A DNA stretch of 64,000 nucleotides. Origin: a virus. The stretch's first letter is position 1. Each line of letters begins with the position of its first letter. The stretch is from the IMG/VR virus record IMGVR_UViG_3300035181_000829, positions 26,232 through 90,231 of that record; one strand, given 5' to 3'. A model generated the notes under the pieces. It was not told the origin of the DNA. It did not search any database and was given only the letters and a program-made list of their open reading frames with translations. A program made the translations under genes and the position numbers. Shown in pieces: positions 465 to 61,627 of the stretch.

Positions 465-1094
465 TCATCTCATGTTGTAGCGGTGCGTTTTACCCGCGAC
501 CGGATCGGTGACACTTGTCTTTGAGATGGTATGAGCCGGGGAACCATCAGAGCCGAGGCCGGTCTTGCCCCACTGAATTTCACCGTTGTTGTCCATACGG
601 ACTAGAAATGGATGAACATGTTTATCATAGGAATCAGGTTCCGTAAAGCCATAATACCACGAAGCGTATTCAATGGTAACATCGGCCTTTTCCCGGTAGG
701 TCATAATCTCGAAGCTGTATCCGTTGAGCTTCCCGTCCTTGACCTGTTTCCATACGTCTTTGTCGTTGATCTTGGTCGCCGCAACCCATGAACCTTCGCG
801 GAAATCGGGATCACCTTTGCGGGCGATGAAGCTTTCAACGATGACCGCATCCACGAGTTCGTTGTCGTGCTGCACATCGATACTGGTGAGAAGCCCATCG
901 GCCATGAAGCGGTGCGCCGTCTTGCGCAGTTCACTCGCAGTCATGAAGTGACCGTGGGCGTCTATCACATCGGGGGCATAGACCTCACCAAGAACGATCT
1001 GTTCATCCCGCAGAACCTTTTCGATCTTGTAATGCGCGGTAGCCTTGACAATGCTGGGGGCGTGACGCAGCAATTCGCGAATTGTCTTAACCAT
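465..1094 (-). CDS. Prohead serine protease, XkdF-like
   Basis: EQIVLGEVYAPDVIDAHGHFMT...IDVQHD...VESFIA...GSWV...W.QVKDGKLNGYS matches the XkdF family pattern. GGAGG RBS before ATG 1094. Follows the portal gene. Confidence 0.85.
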   Translation of the reverse strand: MVKTIRELLRHAPSIVKATAHYKIEKVLRDEQIVLGEVYAPDVIDAHGHFMTASELRKTAHRFMADGLLTSIDVQHDNELVDAVIVESFIARKGDPDFREGSWVAATKINDKDVWKQVKDGKLNGYSFEIMTYREKADVTIEYASWYYGFTEPDSYDKHVHPFLVRMDNNGEIQWGKTGLGSDGSPAHTISKTSVTDPVAGKTHRYNMR

Positions 1095-2898
1095 CGATGA
1101 CCTCCGAATCACTTGCAATCGATTGCAGCCGCTTTGCTTCAATCTGTTCAGCCATCTTTAGCATAGCGGCTTCGCTCAGTCTACGCAACATTTTCGTAAC
1201 CGGGGAAACACCATCTTCTTCCGAGCCGGGAGGCGTGACCTCTGTCTCTTGCGGCATCACATCGGTTAGTTGCTGCACAATATCGGTAAGGCCGGGGACT
1301 TGACCGCCCGCCATGATTGCCGTCATACTGCTTTGGAACGGCACGTCGCCCCATTCTTCCTCGATGGGCTGAATGTCCGCGTCAAGATAACGGTTGGCAA
1401 TCTTGATAGCGATGTTCGGGGTAATGGCCCCTTCCGCGCCAAGGGTGGCAACAAGGCGGGAGACTTCGGCAGGGTCCGACAGGCCGGGGCCTGCCGACCG
1501 CAAACGCCAGAAGCGGAAGTTGTGGCTTGCCAACACAAGCTGATCGAACATTTCATCCCATGCAATACGTTCGGGAATGAAAATCTGCTGGTCAGCGGTC
1601 AGCATTGATGCGAAGGCCGATGCGCGGTTATACTCGGATGCGCTGCCAATGTAGATCGGCGGAAGTCGGAAGGATGACCGGCCCTTGCGTTCTGCATCGC
1701 CGACATAGTTTTGAAACAGTCCCTCATGTTGGCGTTCAGACAGCATCGGCTTAATGTCAACCTTGGGGGCTGGCAGTGATCCATCGATTGCAGCGGCATC
1801 GGCACCCTCGGAAGTCGCTTCGAGCACCACGATCCTGTTCATGGAGGCTTGCCCGCGCACGCCAAGGATATATTGCTCAATCTTGTCGTAGCTTTCTTCG
1901 GTAAGCGCGCCCCCGGAGACGAGCACGGCCATTGCCGGGATTGCGTTGTCGCGGAAGAAGCCAAGGTTGACCATTTCTGCTTCCCGCGCACCGAGAAGGG
2001 CCGGGATTGCGCCCGCCCAGCGTGGAACGCCAACCGGAATGCCGGGAGAGTAGTGTCCATCGTAGAAAATGGACGTGGCTTCTTCCTCAATGGTCAGGTC
2101 TTCGTTGACTACTCCGCTGGTGGGATCAATGATGCGAGGGTCGCCAAATTCCTTGAACCATGTGCGCCGCCCGTATTCATCGATCTGTATGAAGCGACGG
2201 AAACGCCGGGTGAACGTCACCTTTTGACGAAGCACCGGGTCGAACATGGTTACCTCGGTCGCTTCGCGGTCCTTCATGGTCATCCGCATCGTGATCATGG
2301 GAACGTGCTCGAAGCTGACTACACGGCCAGCCGCATCCTCGATTACTTCAAAGCAACGTGCGCCGAGCACTTCCTTGTCGATGCGGCTTTCCTCACGGTG
2401 TTTTCGCAGGGTGCGGCCATCTGTCGTGATGGTTCCGAGTAGCCGCATGATGCGCTGGCGTTCGTTCTGTGCCGCGCGGCCCATCTCTTGTCCATCCGGC
2501 CCGCAGTATTCGAGACGCAGGCCGTAGCTCTCGATGTTGGTCACATAGGAATCGACACATTGGCGCAGAATGGTCGAAGCGTTGTAAATCTTGATCAGGT
2601 CACGGTAAGGGAACAGTGGAACAACGATCCGCATGGCATTGGACCGGAACACGTCGATACCTAGCGAGTTGCCGTCAACGTTGTCGTAACCGAGAAGGTT
2701 GAAGTCATCATGGAAAAGGCCGTAGATGCCTTTCTTCATGTTTTCCATGCTGGTGAGGCCGGAAAGGGCGGAAGTATAGCCCACCTCGGACTGGCCGGGG
2801 ATTCCGCCTTCAACAATCCCCGTGCCGCTTTTCTTGCTGTTTGCCGCCGCTTTGGTAGTGGAAGGCGTATTGATTTTGCGGACAAGCCTGCGCGCCAT
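1087..2898 (-). CDS. Portal protein
   Basis: About 600 aa with GVPRW...NLGFFRDNAIPAMAVLVSGG, FRLPPIYIG and YNRASA motifs typical of PBSX-like portals. AAGGAG RBS before ATG 2898. Lies between terminase and protease. Confidence 0.88.
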   Translation of the reverse strand: MARRLVRKINTPSTTKAAANSKKSGTGIVEGGIPGQSEVGYTSALSGLTSMENMKKGIYGLFHDDFNLLGYDNVDGNSLGIDVFRSNAMRIVVPLFPYRDLIKIYNASTILRQCVDSYVTNIESYGLRLEYCGPDGQEMGRAAQNERQRIMRLLGTITTDGRTLRKHREESRIDKEVLGARCFEVIEDAAGRVVSFEHVPMITMRMTMKDREATEVTMFDPVLRQKVTFTRRFRRFIQIDEYGRRTWFKEFGDPRIIDPTSGVVNEDLTIEEEATSIFYDGHYSPGIPVGVPRWAGAIPALLGAREAEMVNLGFFRDNAIPAMAVLVSGGALTEESYDKIEQYILGVRGQASMNRIVVLEATSEGADAAAIDGSLPAPKVDIKPMLSERQHEGLFQNYVGDAERKGRSSFRLPPIYIGSASEYNRASAFASMLTADQQIFIPERIAWDEMFDQLVLASHNFRFWRLRSAGPGLSDPAEVSRLVATLGAEGAITPNIAIKIANRYLDADIQPIEEEWGDVPFQSSMTAIMAGGQVPGLTDIVQQLTDVMPQETEVTPPGSEEDGVSPVTKMLRRLSEAAMLKMAEQIEAKRLQSIASDSEVIDG

Positions 2899-2927
2899 AT
2901 CTGCTAACTCCTTTTGGATTAGCAGCA

Positions 2928-2972
2928 ACTATACTCCACAACTTTTTTTGGCACAAGCTACAATCGATTGCA
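2928..2972 (-). promoter_or_regulatory. Sigma70-like promoter for portal, with palindrome just upstream of the -35
   Basis: TTGTGC(2956-2951)-N17-TATAGT(2933-2928); TACAATCGATTGCA at 2959-2972. Confidence 0.55.
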
Positions 2973-2974
2973 GG

Positions 2975-3463
2975 CTATTTCTTGAGGATGAACCTGCGTT
3001 TCTTCTTGATAACTAGCTTCTTTGGGGCGGGTGGTGGTGGTGGTATACGCAGTATGTATGGCTTGTTCACGTGTTCCTTGAGGAACGGCTTAATACCCCA
3101 CAGGAACGGCTGCGAGTATTGTAGGCCCGCGTTCATAATCTTTTCTTCGGTAGTCTGTGCGAAGATATGGCTCTGCAACTGTTCGTAGGTCGGACGCGAA
3201 ATTAACATCTGACCGTCATAGGTCTTGGCTAGTAGCGTGTTGAAGAAGTAGAAGAATACCTTCTCTTGAATCGTCATCGTTTTGATCCAACGCGGCTCGT
3301 GCATCTTATAGGCAAGTTGCATGAGGTTTGCAGGAGAGGCGTCGAAGCCAGCGTAACGCACCATACCCCCGATCAGACTATGCTGTAGCAGCATTGTCCA
3401 ATGCTGGCCGAACATTTTGTTAAGCCGCTCACTGTCGTTTAGGCGTCTTACAATTGCCATCAT
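2975..3463 (-). CDS. Hypothetical protein with Pro-rich linker and basic tail
   Basis: ORF with AAGGA RBS; ends PPPPPAPKKLVIKKKRRFILKK. Confidence 0.7.
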   Translation of the reverse strand: MMAIVRRLNDSERLNKMFGQHWTMLLQHSLIGGMVRYAGFDASPANLMQLAYKMHEPRWIKTMTIQEKVFFYFFNTLLAKTYDGQMLISRPTYEQLQSHIFAQTTEEKIMNAGLQYSQPFLWGIKPFLKEHVNKPYILRIPPPPPAPKKLVIKKKRRFILKK

Positions 3464-3885
3464 TACTTCCTTAGCGAATGCCAATCGGCGAAGCGGTTAT
3501 CCCAGATCAGCCGTGCATCAGGATCGGGGTTGAGAAGTCCATCGCGGATTTCCTCGAACAACATCTGGCAGCGGGCATTGGCTGACTCGAAATCCCCGGC
3601 GTTCCACTGGTAACCGTGATTCAGCGGCTCCAACAGGCGTCCGCGCAGAGTGGTTACGGCAACGGCTGTGTCATTGATGGCGCCCTGTGTGTAATTGCTG
3701 TTGAATTTGGGGTCCAGCGCCCACACGGTCATTTCGTGTGTATCGCCTTTGAAGTAGACGGGGGCCGGTGGCACACCCGGAACGTCACGAAGTTCAACAA
3801 GAAAAATGGCATACCAAGACCAGAACGGGTTCGCTGCAATCGATTGCACGACCCAAGTGCCGCTTTGAAGTGGCGTATCATCCAT
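3463..3885 (-). CDS. Hypothetical protein
   Basis: TAAGGAG RBS before ATG 3885; packed between neighbours. Confidence 0.7.
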   Translation of the reverse strand: MDDTPLQSGTWVVQSIAANPFWSWYAIFLVELRDVPGVPPAPVYFKGDTHEMTVWALDPKFNSNYTQGAINDTAVAVTTLRGRLLEPLNHGYQWNAGDFESANARCQMLFEEIRDGLLNPDPDARLIWDNRFADWHSLRK

Positions 3886-3895
3886 AGTATGCTCC

Positions 3896-4324
3896 TTATT
3901 TTTTACGACCAAAGAAGGGATCGTTCCCGAGGCGAAAGGCCCATAGTGGGCAGTCGGTGGCTAGGCATTCAGCCACAAGTTTGCGCGAGCCGGTGCATAC
4001 GATGCACATGGCGGTGATAGCAGTGCCGCGATTGCGCACGCGCACCCTGTAGCGAAGTTCGGTAGGGTTGTTCTTGTCGTATGGCGTCCGCATTGCGATA
4101 ACGCGATCCTTTGCAGTAAGCGCGCTGTCGATGCTCTTGTCCCCGCACGCTTCCGCGACAAGTATCGTTCGGCGAATACTAGTTGCATCGGGGTTGTCAC
4201 CGTAAACCGCTTCGATAAGGCTTTCTTCGGGCAGAGGCTTCTTATCCGCCGCGACGATGACAAGTGGTTTGCGTTCCTCGGTGGGGACGTATGCTCCGAT
4301 TTCGCTTCGTCTTTTAATTGCCAT
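3896..4324 (-). CDS. Cys4 (putative Zn-binding) protein, paralog A
   Basis: C-terminal AITAMCIVCTG...ECLATDCPLWAFRLG. Confidence 0.75.
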   Translation of the reverse strand: MAIKRRSEIGAYVPTEERKPLVIVAADKKPLPEESLIEAVYGDNPDATSIRRTILVAEACGDKSIDSALTAKDRVIAMRTPYDKNNPTELRYRVRVRNRGTAITAMCIVCTGSRKLVAECLATDCPLWAFRLGNDPFFGRKK

Positions 4325-4326
4325 GC

Positions 4327-4830
4327 TTATTCCTCCGTATCCGCATCATCGCCGTCGCCGCCGTCATCGAACAACGCATCGTCCTCGTCCGTTTCGAAAA
4401 CGATTTCGACCTTCGGTAGCTCGAACCCACGAAGCGGGTCTTTGCCCATGCGGAATGGGTGCAGAGGGCAGGTGATGCTGTTGCACTCCCTGACCCCAAT
4501 CATTTCGCCTTGGCAATCCATGCAGTAAGCCCGGATAGCCGTAGCACGATTCCTGATCCGCGCCCGCGACTGGTTGACGACAACGTTGTCGCCGCTAGGT
4601 CTGCGGATATGCGCTAGCAGTTCTGACTTCGGCAAGGATTTTGGATTTGCCCCGTGCCAGTCAAGACGTTGTTGCAGGTATATTACCCGTTCACCAAGCT
4701 TTATTGCACGAATGCCCGTCGCTTCATCCGCGCGGACTTCGCACAATGCGCATTCTTCTTCCAGCAGTTTTCGCGCTTGGACGCTTTCTGCGGATAAGCT
4801 TCCTTGATACTTTGGGGGTATGCTGACCAT
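4327..4830 (-). CDS. Cys4 (putative Zn-binding) protein, paralog B, with acidic tail
   Basis: AIRAYCMDCQG...ECNSITCPLHPFRMG; GAGGA RBS before ATG 4830. Confidence 0.75.
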   Translation of the reverse strand: MVSIPPKYQGSLSAESVQARKLLEEECALCEVRADEATGIRAIKLGERVIYLQQRLDWHGANPKSLPKSELLAHIRRPSGDNVVVNQSRARIRNRATAIRAYCMDCQGEMIGVRECNSITCPLHPFRMGKDPLRGFELPKVEIVFETDEDDALFDDGGDGDDADTEE

Positions 4831-26177: not shown

Positions 26178-26609
26178 CCATGAATCATCGTTGGATTTCA
26201 GCGTTAGGTGCACAAGGCCAATACAGTTGCACTGAACAAATAGAGATGTAGTCTTTGATCTTATTACCTTCGCGGTGCCATCGCAGTTAGGACAAGCGAA
26301 CCTAAGTGTTTCCCCCGCCATCACCGGCCTTGGCACATGTCCGATAACATTTGACAAAAGCACTTGACTTTGAGAAACGTAGTCATCCCATTCTGCCCGT
26401 TCATTGGCAGTAAATTCCTTTCGGCCATTACAAGGCTTGATCAACGCAGGTGGATTAGGCAAGCACTTGAGAACAATGTCATTCTCGCCAAGCAATTGCA
26501 TGTCACACTTTGGCCCACCTTCATGGTGGTAGAAACGACAGTGGTGTGTCGCGTGCAGAGGCATAGCCTGTGAATGGTATTTGGCTCTGTGTTTCTTTAC
26601 CATGGGCAT
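26169..26609 (-). CDS. Zn-ribbon-containing hypothetical protein
   Basis: CPNC...CNC plus an N-terminal Cys/His cluster. Confidence 0.65.
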   Translation of the reverse strand: MPMVKKHRAKYHSQAMPLHATHHCRFYHHEGGPKCDMQLLGENDIVLKCLPNPPALIKPCNGRKEFTANERAEWDDYVSQSQVLLSNVIGHVPRPVMAGETLRFACPNCDGTAKVIRSKTTSLFVQCNCIGLVHLTLKSNDDSWPS

Positions 26610-49013: not shown

Positions 49014-49549
49014 TTCTTGAGCATCCCTTTTATCCTGATGTTACGTTTGGCATTGCCGCTCGTTTTGGAGATAACGCGACGATGCAATGGTTCTTTTGTT
49101 TGTATCATCTTGGATTGCTCAAAGATGAACTCGTCGGCTTCATTCTCGACCGGAAGATCGGACACGCGAATGTCTGCTTTATCGCCGGTAGTGATCTTGG
49201 TGGCCGCAAGGGCAATATCACCGCCAAGCAGCGTCTGCACATCGGACTTGCTGGCAGTTATGCACGCGAGGAAGTTTTCACGGCTGATTTTGCCTTCCTC
49301 AAACATCGTGAGAATGTAGTTGGCATTCACCGTCTCACGTTCGGTAGCCTCGTATCGGAACTCCATCCCGCCAGTGCGGATAAAGGAGCCGATTGGCATG
49401 GAGTTCTTTAGCCAGTATTCCTTGACCGCATTGCGAAGCACAGTCTTTTCGCGATTGGCCGCGTTACCCGCGTCTTTCGCTTTTTCCTTGGCTTTTACGA
49501 ATGACAATGCGGCGACTTTGATGTTTTCTGGCAGCTTGAGCTTGGGCAT
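49010..49549 (-). CDS. Hypothetical protein
   Basis: ATG 49549 (MPKLKLP) overlapping the pol 3' end. Confidence 0.7.
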   Translation of the reverse strand: MPKLKLPENIKVAALSFVKAKEKAKDAGNAANREKTVLRNAVKEYWLKNSMPIGSFIRTGGMEFRYEATERETVNANYILTMFEEGKISRENFLACITASKSDVQTLLGGDIALAATKITTGDKADIRVSDLPVENEADEFIFEQSKMIQTKEPLHRRVISKTSGNAKRNIRIKGMLKK

Positions 49550-52500
49550 TTGGTTGGGTTCCCCGTGATATGGTGATTTTACGCCGTGGTGACTGCATTG
49601 TGAAGGGTTTACCGTCTGACAATGCAGCATCCGCTTCGATAGTGGCTATCTGTTTGGTCAGTTTCGCTATGTCCTTTTCGCTAGTAGCTTTCGACAGGGC
49701 ACCATTGGTATCCCGCCATACATGTTCGAGCATGTCCCGGTATGACTTATTCCGGTTGTTCGCTCCTTCGAACCATTCACTGTCAAGTTCATAGGTAGAT
49801 GCAAGGTCACGCCCAACCTCGGCATCCGCGATGATCGGGATGGAAGGATTCCAGCTAAACCATTTTTCTAGCGGGTTGTTCTCCATGAATTGCTTTACGA
49901 GGGCGCAGCCGTGGGCAACATGTTCTTCCCGCACTAGACAAACGATAGCGTCGTGGATGAACCCGCACGGCTTCAACCAGTCAATCCCTTTTGAAAGGAT
50001 ATAGGGTATAAGCCGTCCTAGAGTCATAAGCCCAAGATCGCTTGCAATCGATTGCACGGGGCTGTTGATTGCCTGCCGCATTGCCTGCTTAGCGATTGCT
50101 TCATCCCGCGAAAAGACGTTCGGCAGGTGGCGGATGCGGCCATCGTAAGTTCGAACAAAGCCGGTTTGTGCAACATACTCTTGGACTGTATTATGCCATG
50201 TCAAAAGGCGCGGGTATGTCTTGAAGAACATAGTCCTGATGTTCTCCGCTTCCTCGTCGGTGAAGTCGATCCCGTAGTCGGTCTTGGCGTAGGCACGGAA
50301 CTTTTTCCACCACATACCATACAGGAATCCGAAGTTCACCGCTTTGGCTTGGAAGCGTTTCAGCGATTGTAATTCTTTATCAAGCTTCAGAAACTGGTCG
50401 AGCGTAAGCCCCATAGTTCCTGCTGCTGTCATCCTGTGAATATCGCCACCATCGCGATACACTTGCAGCATGTTTTCGTCGCCGCTCATCATAGCCGCGA
50501 TGCGAAGCTCTGCTTGAGACAAGTCTAGCGAGATGAACACCCATCCTTTAGGTGCACGAAAGATGCGGCGATACTTCTTAGCCATATCGCCGCGCTTTGG
50601 AAAGTTCTGTCCATTCGGATCGGCAGAATTGTGATTAAACACACCACATGCCAAGTAGCTATGGTCGTCGGCTACTTCGAGGTCAAACACAGGATAGCTT
50701 CCGCAATGGTGAACTTGCGTAATAGTCACTTCATTGTGGTTAAGGCAAGGTTGTCCAGTTGATTGTTCTCTGTATTCTCGTTTATGTGATGAACTTCCAG
50801 CCAATCGGGTAGTTGCAGGGGGTGCAGGTTCAGGGCTTCCGCAATTACTACCCGGTGAACAAAGTATCGCTTTTTGTCTACTACCGTTGTTAAGTATCCA
50901 TGACCATCCTTTTGAAACTTCCCCGGTAGATGGTTGCCCGGTTTCATTCCGAGCATGGGATTTCTGCCGCCCATTTTCGACGCAGAGTATTTCGTGTAAA
51001 GCCTTAACACTCTCTTGCGGAAGTTCTTGTCGGCCAAGTGCCGCTTGGATACAGATATTGCGAAGTGAAGTCCAACCTTTAGGTGTATAGAAACGGTGTT
51101 CTTCTGTGCATCGGATTTTCTCCCCCGCGCTTGTCGTAACGTCATACATAGCTTGAACGGGCTTCAAGTATTTACGCACAACAGGTTTACGGTTTCCTTT
51201 GTGGGTAGTGACCGTATCCCCAATCGCTATGTCGGCTATCCGAACAAGGCCGCGTTGCGTAGGTATGAGAGTATCTGCGTGGACACAGGCTGAGCGACCT
51301 GTAACGGTCGCCGCAAGCTTGTAGGTTGGTCTGATCAATCCGTCGAAGATATACTTGTGAAACCCCTTGGCATAGGTATTCAGCATCTTATCGTTCTTGA
51401 TGTATGTCGTAAGCCGCGCAAGCACAGGATGGTCCGCGACATAGTAAGGAAGCGCCTGCTTTGACGACACCGAAGGCAAGCCGGTCTTGGTAAATGCAAC
51501 AGGTTTAAGTTTCAATCCATCGGGGTGATGGTATAGCCAATCTGCAAGCAAGTCGCGTCTCGTTACTTTAACACCGACGCCGCTATTCCGCCACTTATCA
51601 CGAATGGATTTGGGTATCTGGTTTATGAGGTATCCGCGCTCTTTCTTTTGTATGAGGCGAAGATCGGTTTCGAACTCATTGAGCCGGTTTTCATCGACCG
51701 GGAAGCCGTTACGTTCTACATGGCAGAATGCGCGGCTGGCGGGCATGGACACGTAATCGTAGGTTGCCCGCAGTCGAACGTCCTCGTCAAGTTGTGCGAG
51801 TAGGCGACCTAGCAGGTGCAGCGCCGCGTCCGTATCTCCTGAACCATAGACGAGCATTTTCTCCGGGCTAAGTAAGTCCATGCGGGTCTTACCGTGGTGT
51901 TCCGGGTCGTTATTCAGTGTATCATTGTAGCCCGCCATCTCAGGCACATGCTGTCGAACAAGGTCATCGATATTGATACGCCGCTGGTTTTCATCGAGAA
52001 GGTGCGCGATAAGCATCGTATCGTGCGCGTAGTTCTGCACATCGATGCCCATTTGATAGTGAAGCATCTGAATGTCGAACTTGAGATTTTGCCCGATCTT
52101 TTCAATGCGCGGGTCTTCGAGAATTGTTTTAAGATCAGCGAAAAGCTTTTTCCTATTGATGGTATCCCAAGGGATGAAATTATGGTGCCGATATTTACCA
52201 TAATCATAATTGATCGGGATGATGATAGACTTCCCCGTTTCCCATGACATTTGTATAGTGAGAACAGTTGTCTTCTTAGCGAACGGAACTAGTCCAACGG
52301 TTTCAACGTCGAGCGATATGAGCTTTGGTCTATTTTTCAAAACATCGGTAAGGTCGTAGCACCACTTGTAGTCGCGCTTATAATCGATTGCAGCGGACTC
52401 AATGTCGAAATCAGCTTCGAAGATACGCGAGGCCGTGCGAAGATCAGCGTTGAATGTTCCCTCGGTTTCTGGCTGGCGCTGGGCGTAGAACGTTGACAGC

Positions 52501-52943
52501 ATAGGCAGAACAGGGATACCTAGCGCCGGGTCTTCGAACACTTGTCCCCGCGACTTGGTGATCTGCACCGCTCGACCAATTATCTGCTGCGTGGCTTTGG
52601 CCCCGAGCGTCATAATGAACTTGGGTTTGTTACGGTTGATCAAGTTCATAAGCGTTTGGCGATGTTCCTTTAGATGCAGCCCGAGCATCTTGTTGGATTT
52701 CCACGTCTCGCCGTCAACAGGTAGCGCGCACGAGATGATGCACACATCTGCACGCTCAAACTTTGTGTGTGCCTTGATCCGCGTGAACAACCACTTGGCT
52801 TGTTCTGGTGACAGAGGGTTGTTGGCACTCAAGTTTCCTACGACCGGATCAAGAATCATATAACATGGTGCGGACAGATCGCCATAATAGGGAAATGGGA
52901 AGTCCATGAACTTTGCCTGCGGCTTGCGCTGGATGATTGCCAT
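49464..52943 (-). CDS. polA: DNA polymerase family A (N-terminal UDG-like domain, 3'-5' exonuclease), intein-containing
   Basis: Exo LDVETVGL, GQNLKFD, HDTML, Y...D; pol TGR.../PN.QN, DLSQAELR, R.QAKAVNFGFLYG, RQAINSPVQ, IHDAI; N-terminal INRNKPKFIMTLGAKA..ITK.RG is UDG4-like. Confidence 0.95.
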   Translation of the reverse strand: MAIIQRKPQAKFMDFPFPYYGDLSAPCYMILDPVVGNLSANNPLSPEQAKWLFTRIKAHTKFERADVCIISCALPVDGETWKSNKMLGLHLKEHRQTLMNLINRNKPKFIMTLGAKATQQIIGRAVQITKSRGQVFEDPALGIPVLPMLSTFYAQRQPETEGTFNADLRTASRIFEADFDIESAAIDYKRDYKWCYDLTDVLKNRPKLISLDVETVGLVPFAKKTTVLTIQMSWETGKSIIIPINYDYGKYRHHNFIPWDTINRKKLFADLKTILEDPRIEKIGQNLKFDIQMLHYQMGIDVQNYAHDTMLIAHLLDENQRRINIDDLVRQHVPEMAGYNDTLNNDPEHHGKTRMDLLSPEKMLVYGSGDTDAALHLLGRLLAQLDEDVRLRATYDYVSMPASRAFCHVERNGFPVDENRLNEFETDLRLIQKKERGYLINQIPKSIRDKWRNSGVGVKVTRRDLLADWLYHHPDGLKLKPVAFTKTGLPSVSSKQALPYYVADHPVLARLTTYIKNDKMLNTYAKGFHKYIFDGLIRPTYKLAATVTGRSACVHADTLIPTQRGLVRIADIAIGDTVTTHKGNRKPVVRKYLKPVQAMYDVTTSAGEKIRCTEEHRFYTPKGWTSLRNICIQAALGRQELPQESVKALHEILCVENGRQKSHARNETGQPSTGEVSKGWSWILNNGSRQKAILCSPGSNCGSPEPAPPATTRLAGSSSHKREYREQSTGQPCLNHNEVTITQVHHCGSYPVFDLEVADDHSYLACGVFNHNSADPNGQNFPKRGDMAKKYRRIFRAPKGWVFISLDLSQAELRIAAMMSGDENMLQVYRDGGDIHRMTAAGTMGLTLDQFLKLDKELQSLKRFQAKAVNFGFLYGMWWKKFRAYAKTDYGIDFTDEEAENIRTMFFKTYPRLLTWHNTVQEYVAQTGFVRTYDGRIRHLPNVFSRDEAIAKQAMRQAINSPVQSIASDLGLMTLGRLIPYILSKGIDWLKPCGFIHDAIVCLVREEHVAHGCALVKQFMENNPLEKWFSWNPSIPIIADAEVGRDLASTYELDSEWFEGANNRNKSYRDMLEHVWRDTNGALSKATSEKDIAKLTKQIATIEADAALSDGKPFTMQSPRRKITISRGTQPNAQAQAARKHQSRRIVIRKSQGKSERRG
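50628..51287 (-). mobile_element. Intein (220 aa) in DNA polymerase
   Basis: Starts CVHADTLI; block B CTEEHRF; ends VFDLEV..DHSYLA.GVFNHN followed by Ser; removal restores TGRSA-SADPNGQN. Confidence 0.92.
50726..51145 (-). CDS. HNH homing endonuclease in the +1 frame inside the pol intein (possibly C-terminally truncated)
   Basis: G.NPM.G (NUMOD3-like), DGHGY...FVHRVV.AE...EVHHINENTENN.LDNL. Confidence 0.75.
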   Translation of the reverse strand: MTLRQARGRKSDAQKNTVSIHLKVGLHFAISVSKRHLADKNFRKRVLRLYTKYSASKMGGRNPMLGMKPGNHLPGKFQKDGHGYLTTVVDKKRYFVHRVVIAEALNLHPLQLPDWLEVHHINENTENNQLDNLALTTMK

Positions 52944-59086: not shown

Positions 59087-61627
59087 TTATCCTTTCGGTG
59101 TGGGTTTGCGGACAACGCGGGCACGACCACGAATACCACGGCTACCAACAGTCAATGGTCGCATGTGGTGCTCACCAGTATTGACGGCACTTGCCGCGCG
59201 GGCATTGACTTCCGCCCATTCGCGCATTGCATCAAATTCTGCCGCCCGTGTCTTGTGCATGGGCCGCAATGTTGACCATGCCTCCCGCAGATCGTTCAAG
59301 TCAACCGCTGTATCGCCTCTGCCTAGGCACATCACAAGGGCTTCCTCGCACAAGCTTTCGATTTCGGCCCCGACCAAGTTCTCGGAAATGCTTACAATCG
59401 ATTCGAGGTCATCTTCGCTGATTTCCTGCCCGCGCTTGGCAAGGTGGATTTCGAAGATTGTCCGACGTTCCTGCGCGTTTGGCACGTTGACCGCCCAGAT
59501 TTCATCGACGCGGCCCTTGCGCAGAAGTTCTGGCGGCAGATTGTCGATACGGTTTGCCGTCATAATCAAGAAGACGGGGCGGTGCCGCTGGTTACGCTCC
59601 TGCATCCACGTAAGAAACGTGCCGAACACCCGTTGCGTCGTGCCGCCATCGTTCGCACCGCCCGCCATGCCAGAAAAGCCCTTGTCAATTTCGTCAAGCA
59701 TCAGAACGCACGGAGACATTGCATCGATCATTCCGAGCACGTTTCGCATCGCACTCTCGGATTGGCCGATGTATGCGCCGAAGACGCGGCCAACGTCGAA
59801 GCGGATGACCGGAAGATTCAAGATGGACCCTGCGGCTTTTGCAAGCATACTCTTGCCTGTATTATGCACGATCAGGCCGTTGTTGACGTGGAAGTTGGCA
59901 GCAGGCATTTCCATTTGCAAATCGTAGGTATCCTTGATCCCGACGACGCTTACCTTGCGTACCTTGGTTATCCTCGTATGTTCCACGTTGAGGTTTGCAA
60001 CCGAAATGTCGCGGTGTTGTGCCAAGTGATCGCTATTGGCAAGAACCTCAAGATTGGAGATTGCATCGTTCAACGCATCTCCGTCCAGATGGTGAACCTC
60101 ACGCGAGTCTGGCAGCACAATTCGGTGCGGATGGTCCGGTGTGCCACGAAGGGCGGCGACATACGCATCGTAGGATAACCCATTCATACGGGCCTCTATG
60201 ACAAGCCGTGCTTTGTGCTGGCGTTTGTAGTGGAAGATACGGTGCGAAGTTTCGATAACGTGGGGCCAACCACTATCGTAGTATTTCAGCCCCTCTACGA
60301 CGATACTCGGTCGATTGACCGACCGACCGCCCTGCGGCATGGGCTTCATGCTGCCGCGCATAACTAGCTTATCGCCCCGACGAACGTCCGCTACGCGCTT
60401 GAACGTGCCATCGATTGTAAGGACGCTATCCTCGGGTGTGATAACGACCTCATCGTCGTCTGTGGTGATACGGATGCAGGGTTTCTTTCCGCTGGCATAC
60501 GCTCCGATCACACGATTGTAGAACATGGTGCCAGTTTCGCTGTCCCACGATTGAACGTAGGTTGGCTTGGTCAAATCCCACGGTCTGCTTTTGGCAACAG
60601 GCAAACCATTGAATTTGGCAACAAAATCCTCGATAGGCATAGACCTCGAAGAATTGCGCTTGCCTCGTTTGTAGTGAATGATGGTTCCAGCGGCTTTGCA
60701 ACCCGGTGGGCCGACCACTAGCGCACCCTTGGACGGGGTGATACCAAGTTCCTTGGCACCTTCGCCGTAAGTTCCCGCACGCTGCACCATCCACTTTTTG
60801 AAAAGCTCCAAGCCGCCAACCTCCTCGATGGCAACAGGCGGCTGGAGTTCGAGCACGTTCGTCTTGCGCAGCAGTTGCGTCTTGTAGTCCCGCAACCATC
60901 GCAGCATTTCGGGTGCGCCGAAACCTGTCAGGTTACCGTGCTCGTTACCATAGTCGGTAACCGACAACGCGATAGCGGTTTCGAAGGCCGTGGCCGTCAT
61001 GCCGCGTCCGTTGGCGATGATCGCCGCCATTTGCTCGTCGGTGATGCTGGCAGAGATTTCCTTGTTTTCGAACGCCCGCGTAATGTCAGAGAGGCTTTCC
61101 CGCAGTTCATCGTCAGACGGATAGCCGAAGTCCACGATATGCAGTAGCGGGGCCACGGCGTCGGGAATGGTGGCGCTCTGCGGGATGATGATGAATACTC
61201 GCTGATTGACCGACAACGCACGCTGCACTTGCTTGCGTAGCAAGAATTGCGTGCGCATTTCGTCCAGCGTGAAGTAAAGATCGAGCATGACGAAGTAGCC
61301 TTCGGCCATATCCCGATTTTCGAAAAGGTTGGTGAAGGCTGACAGCACGTCCGCTGCACGTTTGTCATCGCTTTCCGGTTCAAGCGGATTGAAGACCGGC
61401 ATCTGTGAAAGGCCAACCTCAATACGCGGGAATTTCATCCATCCGCGTTCGACGGTGTGCATCCTGAACGGTTGCTCATTCGTGACGGACAACGCATAGA
61501 TTTCGTCAACGACGCGGAACACCTCTGTTTCATGGCACCGAACGGCGATCAGGCCGATTGAGGCATCTGTCGCGATAGTTAATTCGAGGGCAAGTGCCTC
61601 GGATGAAGTTTTGGTAGTCTTTGGCAT
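59087..61627 (-). CDS. Ycf46-like AAA+ ATPase, intein-containing
   Basis: VGGLE..K.W, GPPG/TGKS..AKA, FDVGRVF..YIGQSE..MR, PCVL.LDEIDKGF, FLTWMQE, TAN....LPPELLRKGR.DE. Confidence 0.9.
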   Translation of the reverse strand: MPKTTKTSSEALALELTIATDASIGLIAVRCHETEVFRVVDEIYALSVTNEQPFRMHTVERGWMKFPRIEVGLSQMPVFNPLEPESDDKRAADVLSAFTNLFENRDMAEGYFVMLDLYFTLDEMRTQFLLRKQVQRALSVNQRVFIIIPQSATIPDAVAPLLHIVDFGYPSDDELRESLSDITRAFENKEISASITDEQMAAIIANGRGMTATAFETAIALSVTDYGNEHGNLTGFGAPEMLRWLRDYKTQLLRKTNVLELQPPVAIEEVGGLELFKKWMVQRAGTYGEGAKELGITPSKGALVVGPPGCKAAGTIIHYKRGKRNSSRSMPIEDFVAKFNGLPVAKSRPWDLTKPTYVQSWDSETGTMFYNRVIGAYASGKKPCIRITTDDDEVVITPEDSVLTIDGTFKRVADVRRGDKLVMRGSMKPMPQGGRSVNRPSIVVEGLKYYDSGWPHVIETSHRIFHYKRQHKARLVIEARMNGLSYDAYVAALRGTPDHPHRIVLPDSREVHHLDGDALNDAISNLEVLANSDHLAQHRDISVANLNVEHTRITKVRKVSVVGIKDTYDLQMEMPAANFHVNNGLIVHNTGKSMLAKAAGSILNLPVIRFDVGRVFGAYIGQSESAMRNVLGMIDAMSPCVLMLDEIDKGFSGMAGGANDGGTTQRVFGTFLTWMQERNQRHRPVFLIMTANRIDNLPPELLRKGRVDEIWAVNVPNAQERRTIFEIHLAKRGQEISEDDLESIVSISENLVGAEIESLCEEALVMCLGRGDTAVDLNDLREAWSTLRPMHKTRAAEFDAMREWAEVNARAASAVNTGEHHMRPLTVGSRGIRGRARVVRKPTPKG
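59861..60700 (-). mobile_element. Intein (280 aa) with in-frame HNH endonuclease, inserted in Walker A
   Basis: GPPG|CKAAGT...EVHHLDGD.LND.ISNL.....DH...H...TYDLQM...NF..NGLIVHN|TGKS. Confidence 0.92.

Follow-up and report, generated by a model that had tools for sequence, protein, structure and literature searches.

A +1-frame HNH endonuclease gene, probably decayed, within a family A DNA polymerase intein of an uncultivated phage

The stretch of DNA analysed here (hereafter, the window) comprises 64,000 nucleotides (nt), the last 64 kb of the 90,231-base virus record IMGVR_UViG_3300035181_000829 (positions 26,232 to 90,231), whose completeness is estimated at 96%. Its minus strand carries a family A DNA polymerase gene with a class 1 intein, and inside the intein a second reading frame, shifted by +1, encodes motifs of an HNH homing endonuclease. 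A preliminary description, made from the letters of the window alone, had read this frame either as a separately translated or frameshift-expressed endonuclease uncoupled from splicing or as a domesticated remnant left by compensating indels. The polymerase product matched the Pfam profiles DNA_pol_A (E 1.1e-59) and DNA_pol_A_exo1 (E 6.4e-18) in addition to intein/Hint profiles, and its domains are a weak uracil-DNA-glycosylase-like (UDG-like) N-terminus, a 3′-5′ exonuclease and PolA. The gene and the parts of its intein are as follows (^ marks a junction).

49464-52943, minus strand: family A DNA polymerase gene, a single open frame of 1159 amino acids (aa) running through the intein
50628-51287, minus strand: class 1 intein of 220 aa, inserted as ATVTGRSA^C...HN^SADPNGQNFP
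51057-51287, minus strand: N-terminal splicing part, which comprises blocks A and B and ends in GWTSLRN, 25-41% identical to its counterpart in 9 related viral loci
50730-51056, minus strand: intein-frame spacer of ~109 codons, apparently non-domain sequence that reads through the putative nuclease remnant and is modelled with low confidence
50628-50729, minus strand: C-terminal splicing part of the intein (VTITQVHHCGSYPVFDLEVADDHSYLACGVFNHN), modelled with high confidence

Read directly from the sequence, the intein starts with CVHADTLI and ends with GVFNHN ahead of an extein Ser. It holds the elements expected of class 1, namely Cys1, a block B CTEEH (Thr-x-x-His) and a terminal His-Asn followed by Ser, and in an alignment of 15 such inteins C1, H64, H219 and N220 were invariant and T61 nearly so. 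The Pfam profile Intein_splicing scored 39.0 bits against the intein alone (cut-off 35.8) and 34.1 bits, under the cut-off, against the whole polymerase; Hint_2 and PT-HINT also matched the intein. An AlphaFold2 model built on the 15-intein alignment gave pLDDT (predicted local-distance difference test) means per 10-residue block of 92-97 over residues 1-80 and 89-96 over residues 191-220, with values below 50 at residues 101-151 and 157-183. The best Foldseek matches of this model were the gp41-1 and DnaB mini-inteins (E ~1e-7, target-normalised TM-score up to 0.80). With both ends modelled at high confidence around a low-confidence middle, and with structural matches to mini-inteins, the predicted intein fold is intact. 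Both the normal splicing blocks and the non-domain middle of about 110 aa that the preliminary description had noticed were thus borne out. Most likely, the intein still splices as a mini-intein with a junk loop of ~100 residues, since its catalytic residues are intact, its frame is open and the allele persists in contigs of four sequencing runs.

Five features lie in the +1 frame; they are positioned relative to the nuclease family described below, of which L009 is an intact member.

50726-51145, minus strand: +1-frame open reading frame (ORF) of 139 aa from an ATG at 51145, its first 29 codons lying over intein block B and matching no member of the nuclease family
50726-51058, minus strand: putative HNH_3 homing-endonuclease remnant of 110 codons, from the codon aligned to the family's first (ATA, Ile) to a TGA; 120 bits against the family hidden Markov model
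50990-51000, minus strand: predicted junction of in-frame deletion 1 (LRLY^TKYS), ~40 codons gone, equivalent to L009 residues 22-61 with helix-turn-helix-like helices
50726-50740, minus strand: predicted junction of in-frame deletion 2 together with the TGA (TTMK, then stop), ~15-16 codons gone, equivalent to the GHxxxH helix of the beta-beta-alpha-metal fold
50672-50725, minus strand: putative former C-terminal nuclease tail (LLRKFTIAEAILCLTSK, then stop), in the same +1 frame past the TGA and overlapping the run-up to intein block F

The 139-aa ORF contains the motifs GGRNPMLG, GHGY and FVHRVV, followed by EVHHINENTENNQLDNLALTTMK and the stop. It matched HNH_3 at 27.2 bits (Pfam cut-off 24.8, E 3.1e-6), the match covering only positions 13-41 of the 46 in the profile. 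Its database relatives were 31 metagenome proteins of 114-232 aa, most of them ~180 aa long, with a best E of 3.7e-28; the closest, P0001, was 66% identical over 62% of the query. In the HNH fold the first His serves as the general base and the last His of the helix binds metal. The first His and the structural Asn are kept in the window (EVHHINENTENNQLDNL), where H119, H120, N128 and N132 occupy invariant columns of the family alignment. The intein and nuclease frames are both stop-free across the overlap, as had been noted before, and the third frame has 11 stops; synonymous shuffles of the window's nuclease frame left the intein frame open in only 0.03% of cases. The recognition of an HNH in this frame was therefore sound, given a profile match above the cut-off and 31 relatives. 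ORF residues 1-29 were also considered as a nuclease N-terminus overlying block B, as residue 11 or 18 was where tblastn alignments began, and this candidate was dropped because the isolated segment gave no match.

To find relatives of the layout, viral and metagenome contigs were scanned with the nuclease-family alignment, which yielded 31 and 28 loci, respectively (59 in total), and the window's exteins, intein halves and ORF were then mapped onto them. The preliminary description had proposed a tBLASTn search for homologous inteins; homologous HNH genes were indeed found, and the intein-bearing relatives came only through the nuclease-family alignment, a viral-contig scan with the intein protein itself as query returning no relative. 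An unbroken polymerase-intein frame with a full-length HNH ORF (172-223 codons) wholly inside it in the +1 frame was present in 16 of the 59 loci (L006-L012, L016, L019, L037 and L039-L044, with L042 and L043 truncated by the ends of their contigs on the start side), and the fragment L020 carries the nuclease in the same phase. In none of these 17 intein loci is this nuclease family in frame with the intein, and no fused form emerged at E <=1e-5 when proteins of 320-2000 aa were searched with the L009 nuclease, which is weak evidence. Loci L018, L021-L036 (except L034) and L045-L064 (except L053) matched HNH, and the polymerase and intein queries gave no hits in them.

Identity between the N-terminal parts of the overprinted inteins ranges from 14 to 65%, the exception being L006 and L041, which are nearly identical (86%). 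These inteins use three insertion points that lie close together in the same polymerase motif, following TGRxS, DPN or PNLQQ. The L007 intein (3688-4536) lies after STDPN, the point at which stand-alone relatives of the nuclease split the polymerase, and the L010 intein (162-1124) lies after PNLQQ and contains a longer nuclease ORF of 223 codons with an extra N-terminal segment. L037 and L040 have a shorter N-terminal intein part, in inteins of 268 aa. Across the intact relatives the nuclease ORF follows immediately on the N-terminal splicing part, and its start codon (ATG, GTG or TTG) lies 70-87 codons into the intein. Apart from P0015, whose N-terminus is truncated, the 29 aligned database relatives begin with MS(V/I)SK or a sequence close to it. 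The nuclease stop falls 8-74 nt before the last codon of the intein, so that the nuclease tail is double-coded with the C-terminal splicing blocks.

Selection on the two frames was assessed by synonymous shuffling in the window and nine viral loci. Across the nuclease gene the intein frame had no stops in 10 of the 10 loci, compared with means of 3.3-11 in the shuffles (P(0) <=0.016 for each). Seven metagenome loci, for which stops were only counted, also had none in the intein frame, and six stand-alone relatives had 19-35 stops in the equivalent frame. These counts indicate that the open intein frame is under selection in the family. Inside the overlap, differences between gapless pairs peaked at the third codon position of the nuclease in 5/5 pairs. 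For L006/L041 the differences by nuclease codon position were 25, 24 and 82 within the overlap and, by intein codon position, 10, 4 and 27 before it, the phase switching where the overlap starts; at the amino-acid level this pair was 76% identical when read in the nuclease frame and 49% identical when read in the intein frame. The nuclease frame was the better conserved in 42 of 45 pairs, with a mean identity of 37% versus 24% for the intein-frame spacer. Within the overlap, judged by this pattern of substitution, the nuclease frame is the selected one.

Of the 16 intact loci, 13 have a Shine-Dalgarno-like core 4-12 nt upstream of the nuclease start, compared with 459 of 4428 background start triplets (10.4%; binomial P 6.6e-11), and the motif is coded by the intein's own ...EE/ED... 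residues. Programmed +1 frameshifting was considered for the intact relatives and set aside, since they have their own starts and Shine-Dalgarno cores and, ahead of the start, the nuclease frame stays free of stops over just 4-28 codons (nine viral loci). The family appears to be best read as a contiguous intein overprinted with a nuclease gene that initiates independently, and a separate +1-frame nuclease gene is, by these comparisons, its normal and selected state.

The window departs from this state at several points. Logan contigs of four runs from four studies showed no indel over 50300-51600; the identical runs X1 and X2 may represent the source of the window, X3 is independent, and X4 covers 24 of 30 bins. 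The nuclease similarity begins with ISVSKRHLADKNFRKRVLRLY, which aligns to family positions 1-21; position 1 reads Ile (ATA) and lies 76 codons into the intein, in line with the relatives. A Shine-Dalgarno-like core is absent before this ATA and before all seven in-frame start candidates (ATG, GTG or TTG from 51145 down), consistent with the earlier remark that the frame had no clear ribosome-binding site. In a MAFFT alignment the window shows gaps relative to L009 at residues 22-61 and from residue 150 onward; the coordinates of the first junction were obtained by arithmetic from the ATA at 51058. In a model of the intact L009 nuclease, helices are predicted at residues 29-67, most of them within the first gap, and the HNH helix at 148-169. 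After the first gap the window alignment picks up again at KYSASKMGGRNPM and runs to DNLALTTMK, where a TGA stands in place of the GHxxxH segment. The nearly invariant G, H and H columns of the family, the two His being H151 and H155 in L009, are thus absent, and the observation that the HNH ends ahead of the helix with the last His holds.

Past the TGA, the tail LLRKFTIAEAILCLTSK aligns with the family's LKRSTLAEALKSLTSK at positions 167-182, weakly (1.1 bits) and in the right place, and its geometry agrees with that of the nuclease stops in intact relatives. The intein has 220 aa in the window versus 279 aa in L006, L008 and L041, and the difference of 59 is close to the sum of the two deletions (40 + 15-16). 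The X3 contig differs from the window by three substitutions, the sole substitution data for the lineage of the window, and one of them (50839 C>A) creates a TAA in the nuclease frame and a Gly-to-Val change in the intein frame. Of dual-frame selection, which the preliminary description had proposed as a check, the substitutions show a nuclease-frame periodicity in the five intact pairs and, in the window's own lineage, an additional nuclease-frame stop, which hints at a lack of selection there. The copy in the window is, to judge from its sequence, a pseudogene or remnant that has lost its start, ribosome-binding site, helix-turn-helix-like segment and catalytic helix. Every one of these lesions leaves the polymerase frame open, as expected if only the polymerase frame remains under selection. 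A decaying HNH frame among the homologs had been named as a possible refutation of the preliminary description; the frame is intact and selected in the 16 relatives, and it is the copy in the window that has decayed.

Cultured phages supplied a further set of relatives, in which the nuclease occurs without an intein. The cultured-phage relatives of the ORF are HNH genes that stand alone and split family A polymerase genes in Acinetobacter, N4-like and other phages, the closest named ones being in Acinetobacter phage APK32 (MK257722) and Escherichia phage PhAPEC5 (KF192075), at 31-38% identity. A tblastn search of cultured phages with the L009 nuclease returned stand-alone genes only (31 records) and no copy hidden under a polymerase annotation alone. 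The stand-alone loci (APK32, PhAPEC5, L013, L014, L015, L017 and L038) resemble the window in carrying this nuclease family at the polymerase motif ...SxxP^N(L/M)QNIP, 3-5 codons from the window's intein site and at the same point as the L007 intein, and they differ in having no intein and a polymerase in two ORFs. Although the PhAPEC5 nuclease was annotated by its depositors as intron-located, no group I intron reached the Rfam gathering score in seven loci (L013, L014, L015, L017, L038, L002 and L003), and the intron status of the stand-alone relatives is thus the depositors' statement only. In L017, two tRNA genes (1100-1171 and 1317-1390; RF00005, 63.7 and 75.7 bits) lie just upstream of the split polymerase.

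The nearest cultured polymerase is that of Rhodobacter phage RcKickapoo (OP009274), whose exteins are 62-65% identical to those of the window and whose intein occupies the identical site (TGRSA^C...HN^S); in contrast to the window, this intein, of ~321 aa by arithmetic, has its HNH_3 domain in frame (34.2 bits). In three sister phages, RcMenchie, RcDurkin and RcTiptonus, precisely the 660 nt that make up the window's intein are missing (431 nt of record span per 1091 nt of query). One of four close Rhodobacter phages thus carries an intein, a patchy distribution as expected of a mobile element.

Taken together, the locus very probably represents a decayed +1-frame nuclease gene inside an intact class 1 polymerase intein, in a widespread family whose nuclease is separately encoded and overprinted. 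In intact members, the nuclease would be translated by internal initiation on the polymerase mRNA and would nick or cut intein-less polymerase alleles near TGRLSS..PNLQNIP, a target suggested by where the relatives interrupt polymerase genes, whereupon repair would copy the intein in. In such members the intein frame stays open across the nuclease gene and amounts there to a predicted disordered spacer between the splicing halves. The window may then capture a late stage of the homing cycle, in which the nuclease decays after fixation and the continuing need for polymerase would confine the decay to lesions that preserve its frame.

Several points weigh against this interpretation. Splicing, translation and cleavage are all functions inferred from sequence; the X3 variant comes from a single contig of depth 9; and two of the four indel-free runs may be the window's own source. 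The ~127 remnant codons contain one stop only, which would mean that the decay is recent or that some constraint is left. Three intact loci, L037 (start 2414), L040 (1779) and L044 (2315), have no Shine-Dalgarno-like core, and their hosts may initiate translation differently. A Foldseek search with the model of the intact L009 nuclease found no match in the PDB at E <=0.001, the top one being I-HmuI (1u3e, E 0.13), and the HNH assignment accordingly rests on Pfam. Finally, the full-length HMMER alignment favours a collinear fit in which ORF residues 20-60 correspond to the helix-turn-helix-like segment. We preferred the deletion reading to this fit because the isolated segment matches family positions 1-21 and the 29 residues upstream match nothing, and because the MAFFT alignment, the position of the start within the intein and the length difference all agree with it.

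Three other explanations were weighed. The shortened +1 ORF might still work, read from the ATG at 51145, from a non-canonical start or through a frameshift, as a DNA-binding or nicking protein or a regulator of the intein allele. The 139 open codons, the HNH_3 score above the Pfam cut-off, the retained His-His and Asn-Asn motif residues and the single stop separating the ORF from its old tail would fit such a role. We nevertheless consider it improbable, as none of the seven in-frame starts has a Shine-Dalgarno-like core, the family start codon is an ATA, the helix with the nearly invariant His (H151 and H155 in L009) and the helix-turn-helix-like segment are deleted, the X3 variant adds a TAA and the first 29 codons match no family member. 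The separate nuclease gene proposed by the preliminary description is the normal condition in 16 intact relatives, and the copy in the window is no longer such a gene.

That the nuclease was once an in-frame intein domain, shifted in this lineage by two compensating indels, would agree with the in-frame HNH_3 intein domains nearby, in RcKickapoo at the same site and in an AAA+ ATPase gene of the same genome. This origin is very unlikely. All 16 intact relatives and L020 have the nuclease shifted by +1, beginning at a start codon of its own and with MS(V/I)SK as a conserved N-terminus; an in-frame relative was not found among them, nor, as weak evidence, was a fused protein; the nuclease domain of the RcKickapoo intein gave no alignment to the window's spacer; and the lesions of the window are multiples of three. 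Of the domesticated remnant after compensating indels, the remnant can be kept and the compensating indels cannot (0/17 in frame, deletions of 3n). As for a miscalled indel in sequencing or assembly, we give it practically no weight: the window comes from a metagenome-derived virus record and no such error was found in it, the contigs of four runs carry no indel, and the same layout recurs in 16 other loci, and the refuting condition named in the preliminary description, two sequencing errors hiding an in-frame HNH, finds no support.

Out-of-frame endonucleases in inteins are already in print, which justifies the caution on novelty in the preliminary description; the comparisons below follow the accessible text of each report. 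Gosselin, Arsenault and Gogarten (10.1101/2025.01.02.630785) described actinobacteriophage inteins of a non-canonical type, whose endonuclease is encoded in a different frame or on the other strand, proposed that they arose when a free-standing endonuclease gene invaded an intein, and predicted that the secondary ORFs decay to leave mini-inteins. As in the window, these are contiguous, splicing-competent inteins with an endonuclease of free-standing type in a different frame and a middle without recognisable fold. In the accessible text, their endonucleases are endonuclease VII-like in frame 3 on the same strand or LAGLIDADG or VSR-like in antisense, HNH occurring in frame only, and the polymerase host named is DNA polymerase III alpha. 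The window differs in its HNH_3 enzyme, its +1 frame, its family A polymerase, its origin in uncultivated phages and in having been caught in decay. Phillips, DeSimone and Gogarten (10.64898/2026.09.14.751524), who cite Gorbalenya 1998, reported a cyanobacterial dnaX intein with a LAGLIDADG ORF in the +2 frame that coexists with mini-intein alleles, with purifying selection on the endonuclease frame and relaxed selection on the intein frame. That system shares with ours an overlapping endonuclease ORF in an intein and selection on the endonuclease frame (here, in the intact relatives), and differs in enzyme family, frame and host gene and in being cellular rather than from a phage.

The ShiLan-type insertion in phage DNA methylase genes, a hidden out-of-frame HNH (Arsenault, Gosselin and Gogarten, Genes 2025, PMC11855218), is likewise an alternative-frame HNH gene whose insertion stays open in the host-gene frame. 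It is described in the accessible text as having no splicing domains and no detectable ribosome-binding site, with leaderless initiation invoked, in contrast to the true intein found here, for which 13/16 relatives have a Shine-Dalgarno-like core. In the fractured genes of Dassa et al. (NAR 2009, PMC2677866), split inteins enclose a free-standing endonuclease gene, so that the N-terminal and the C-terminal splicing part flank an endonuclease gene there as well; unlike the layout given there, the intein frame of the window and of its 16 relatives is unbroken and yields a single precursor, the window's polymerase being one 1159-aa ORF. A +1-frame HNH_3 gene in a family A polymerase intein was not reported in the main texts reached by full-text literature searches, and supplements may list more.

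The layout of the window's intein is thus of an already published kind, and its distinctive point is the stage of decay. For the window taken alone the result is ordinary, a dead passenger gene in an intein that probably still splices. Endonucleases encoded out of frame in inteins are informative about the origin and death of mobile inteins, and the published cases, as far as their accessible text goes, concern other enzyme families and other host genes. To these the locus adds an HNH_3 enzyme in a family A polymerase, an expression signal in the relatives (a Shine-Dalgarno coded within intein residues) and a dated-looking stage of decay in which all nuclease lesions spare the essential polymerase frame. 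Because gene callers label such inteins as endonuclease-degenerate or endonuclease-absent, or as a split polymerase, intein surveys will undercount them. More tentatively, an HNH_3 nuclease lineage aimed at TGRLSS..PNLQNIP may travel in two ways, as a gene that splits the family A polymerase and as a +1-frame passenger of inteins at the three neighbouring codons of that motif, mini-inteins placed within the nuclease's own recognition site having repeatedly captured it; we regard this as a possibility with the balance somewhat against it. If it were true, overprinted inteins would be living intermediates of a "splicing first, endonuclease later" origin of mobile inteins, and the window would lie at the other end of the cycle, where the host frame steers decay of the passenger towards deletions of 3n length and towards stops that the intein frame reads as missense changes.

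Other intein layouts were noticed in the course of the analysis. In the window, the AAA+ ATPase gene at 59087-61627 (minus strand, 846 aa) contains an intein with an in-frame HNH-like stretch (EVHHLDGD...NLEVLANSDH), in agreement with the preliminary description, which had mentioned an in-frame endonuclease in the AAA intein of this genome. The gene matched AAA and AAA_lid_3, with Intein_splicing at 31 bits, under the cut-off, and HNH_3 at 20.8 bits for the whole protein and 26 bits in a genome scan; one phage therefore holds a canonical and an out-of-frame intein layout. On a viral contig, L034 is a gene of >1000 aa (617-3679, frame 2) with several intein-like inserts, the last of which contains an HNH_3 ORF (2713-3501, frame 1; 55.6 bits) in the -1 (+2) frame with the host frame open, by its sequence an out-of-frame HNH in a different host gene and phase. 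L053 (809-3215) shows the split-intein or "fractured gene" layout: a stop at 2407 closes the frame of the extein and the N-terminal intein half, 2438-3058 is occupied by a free-standing HNH_3 gene whose tail is rich in Cys, and the C-terminal half (...IANGIIVHNS) comes next in another frame. The locus L030 lies on a viral contig of the same size as that of L053, 31834 bases.

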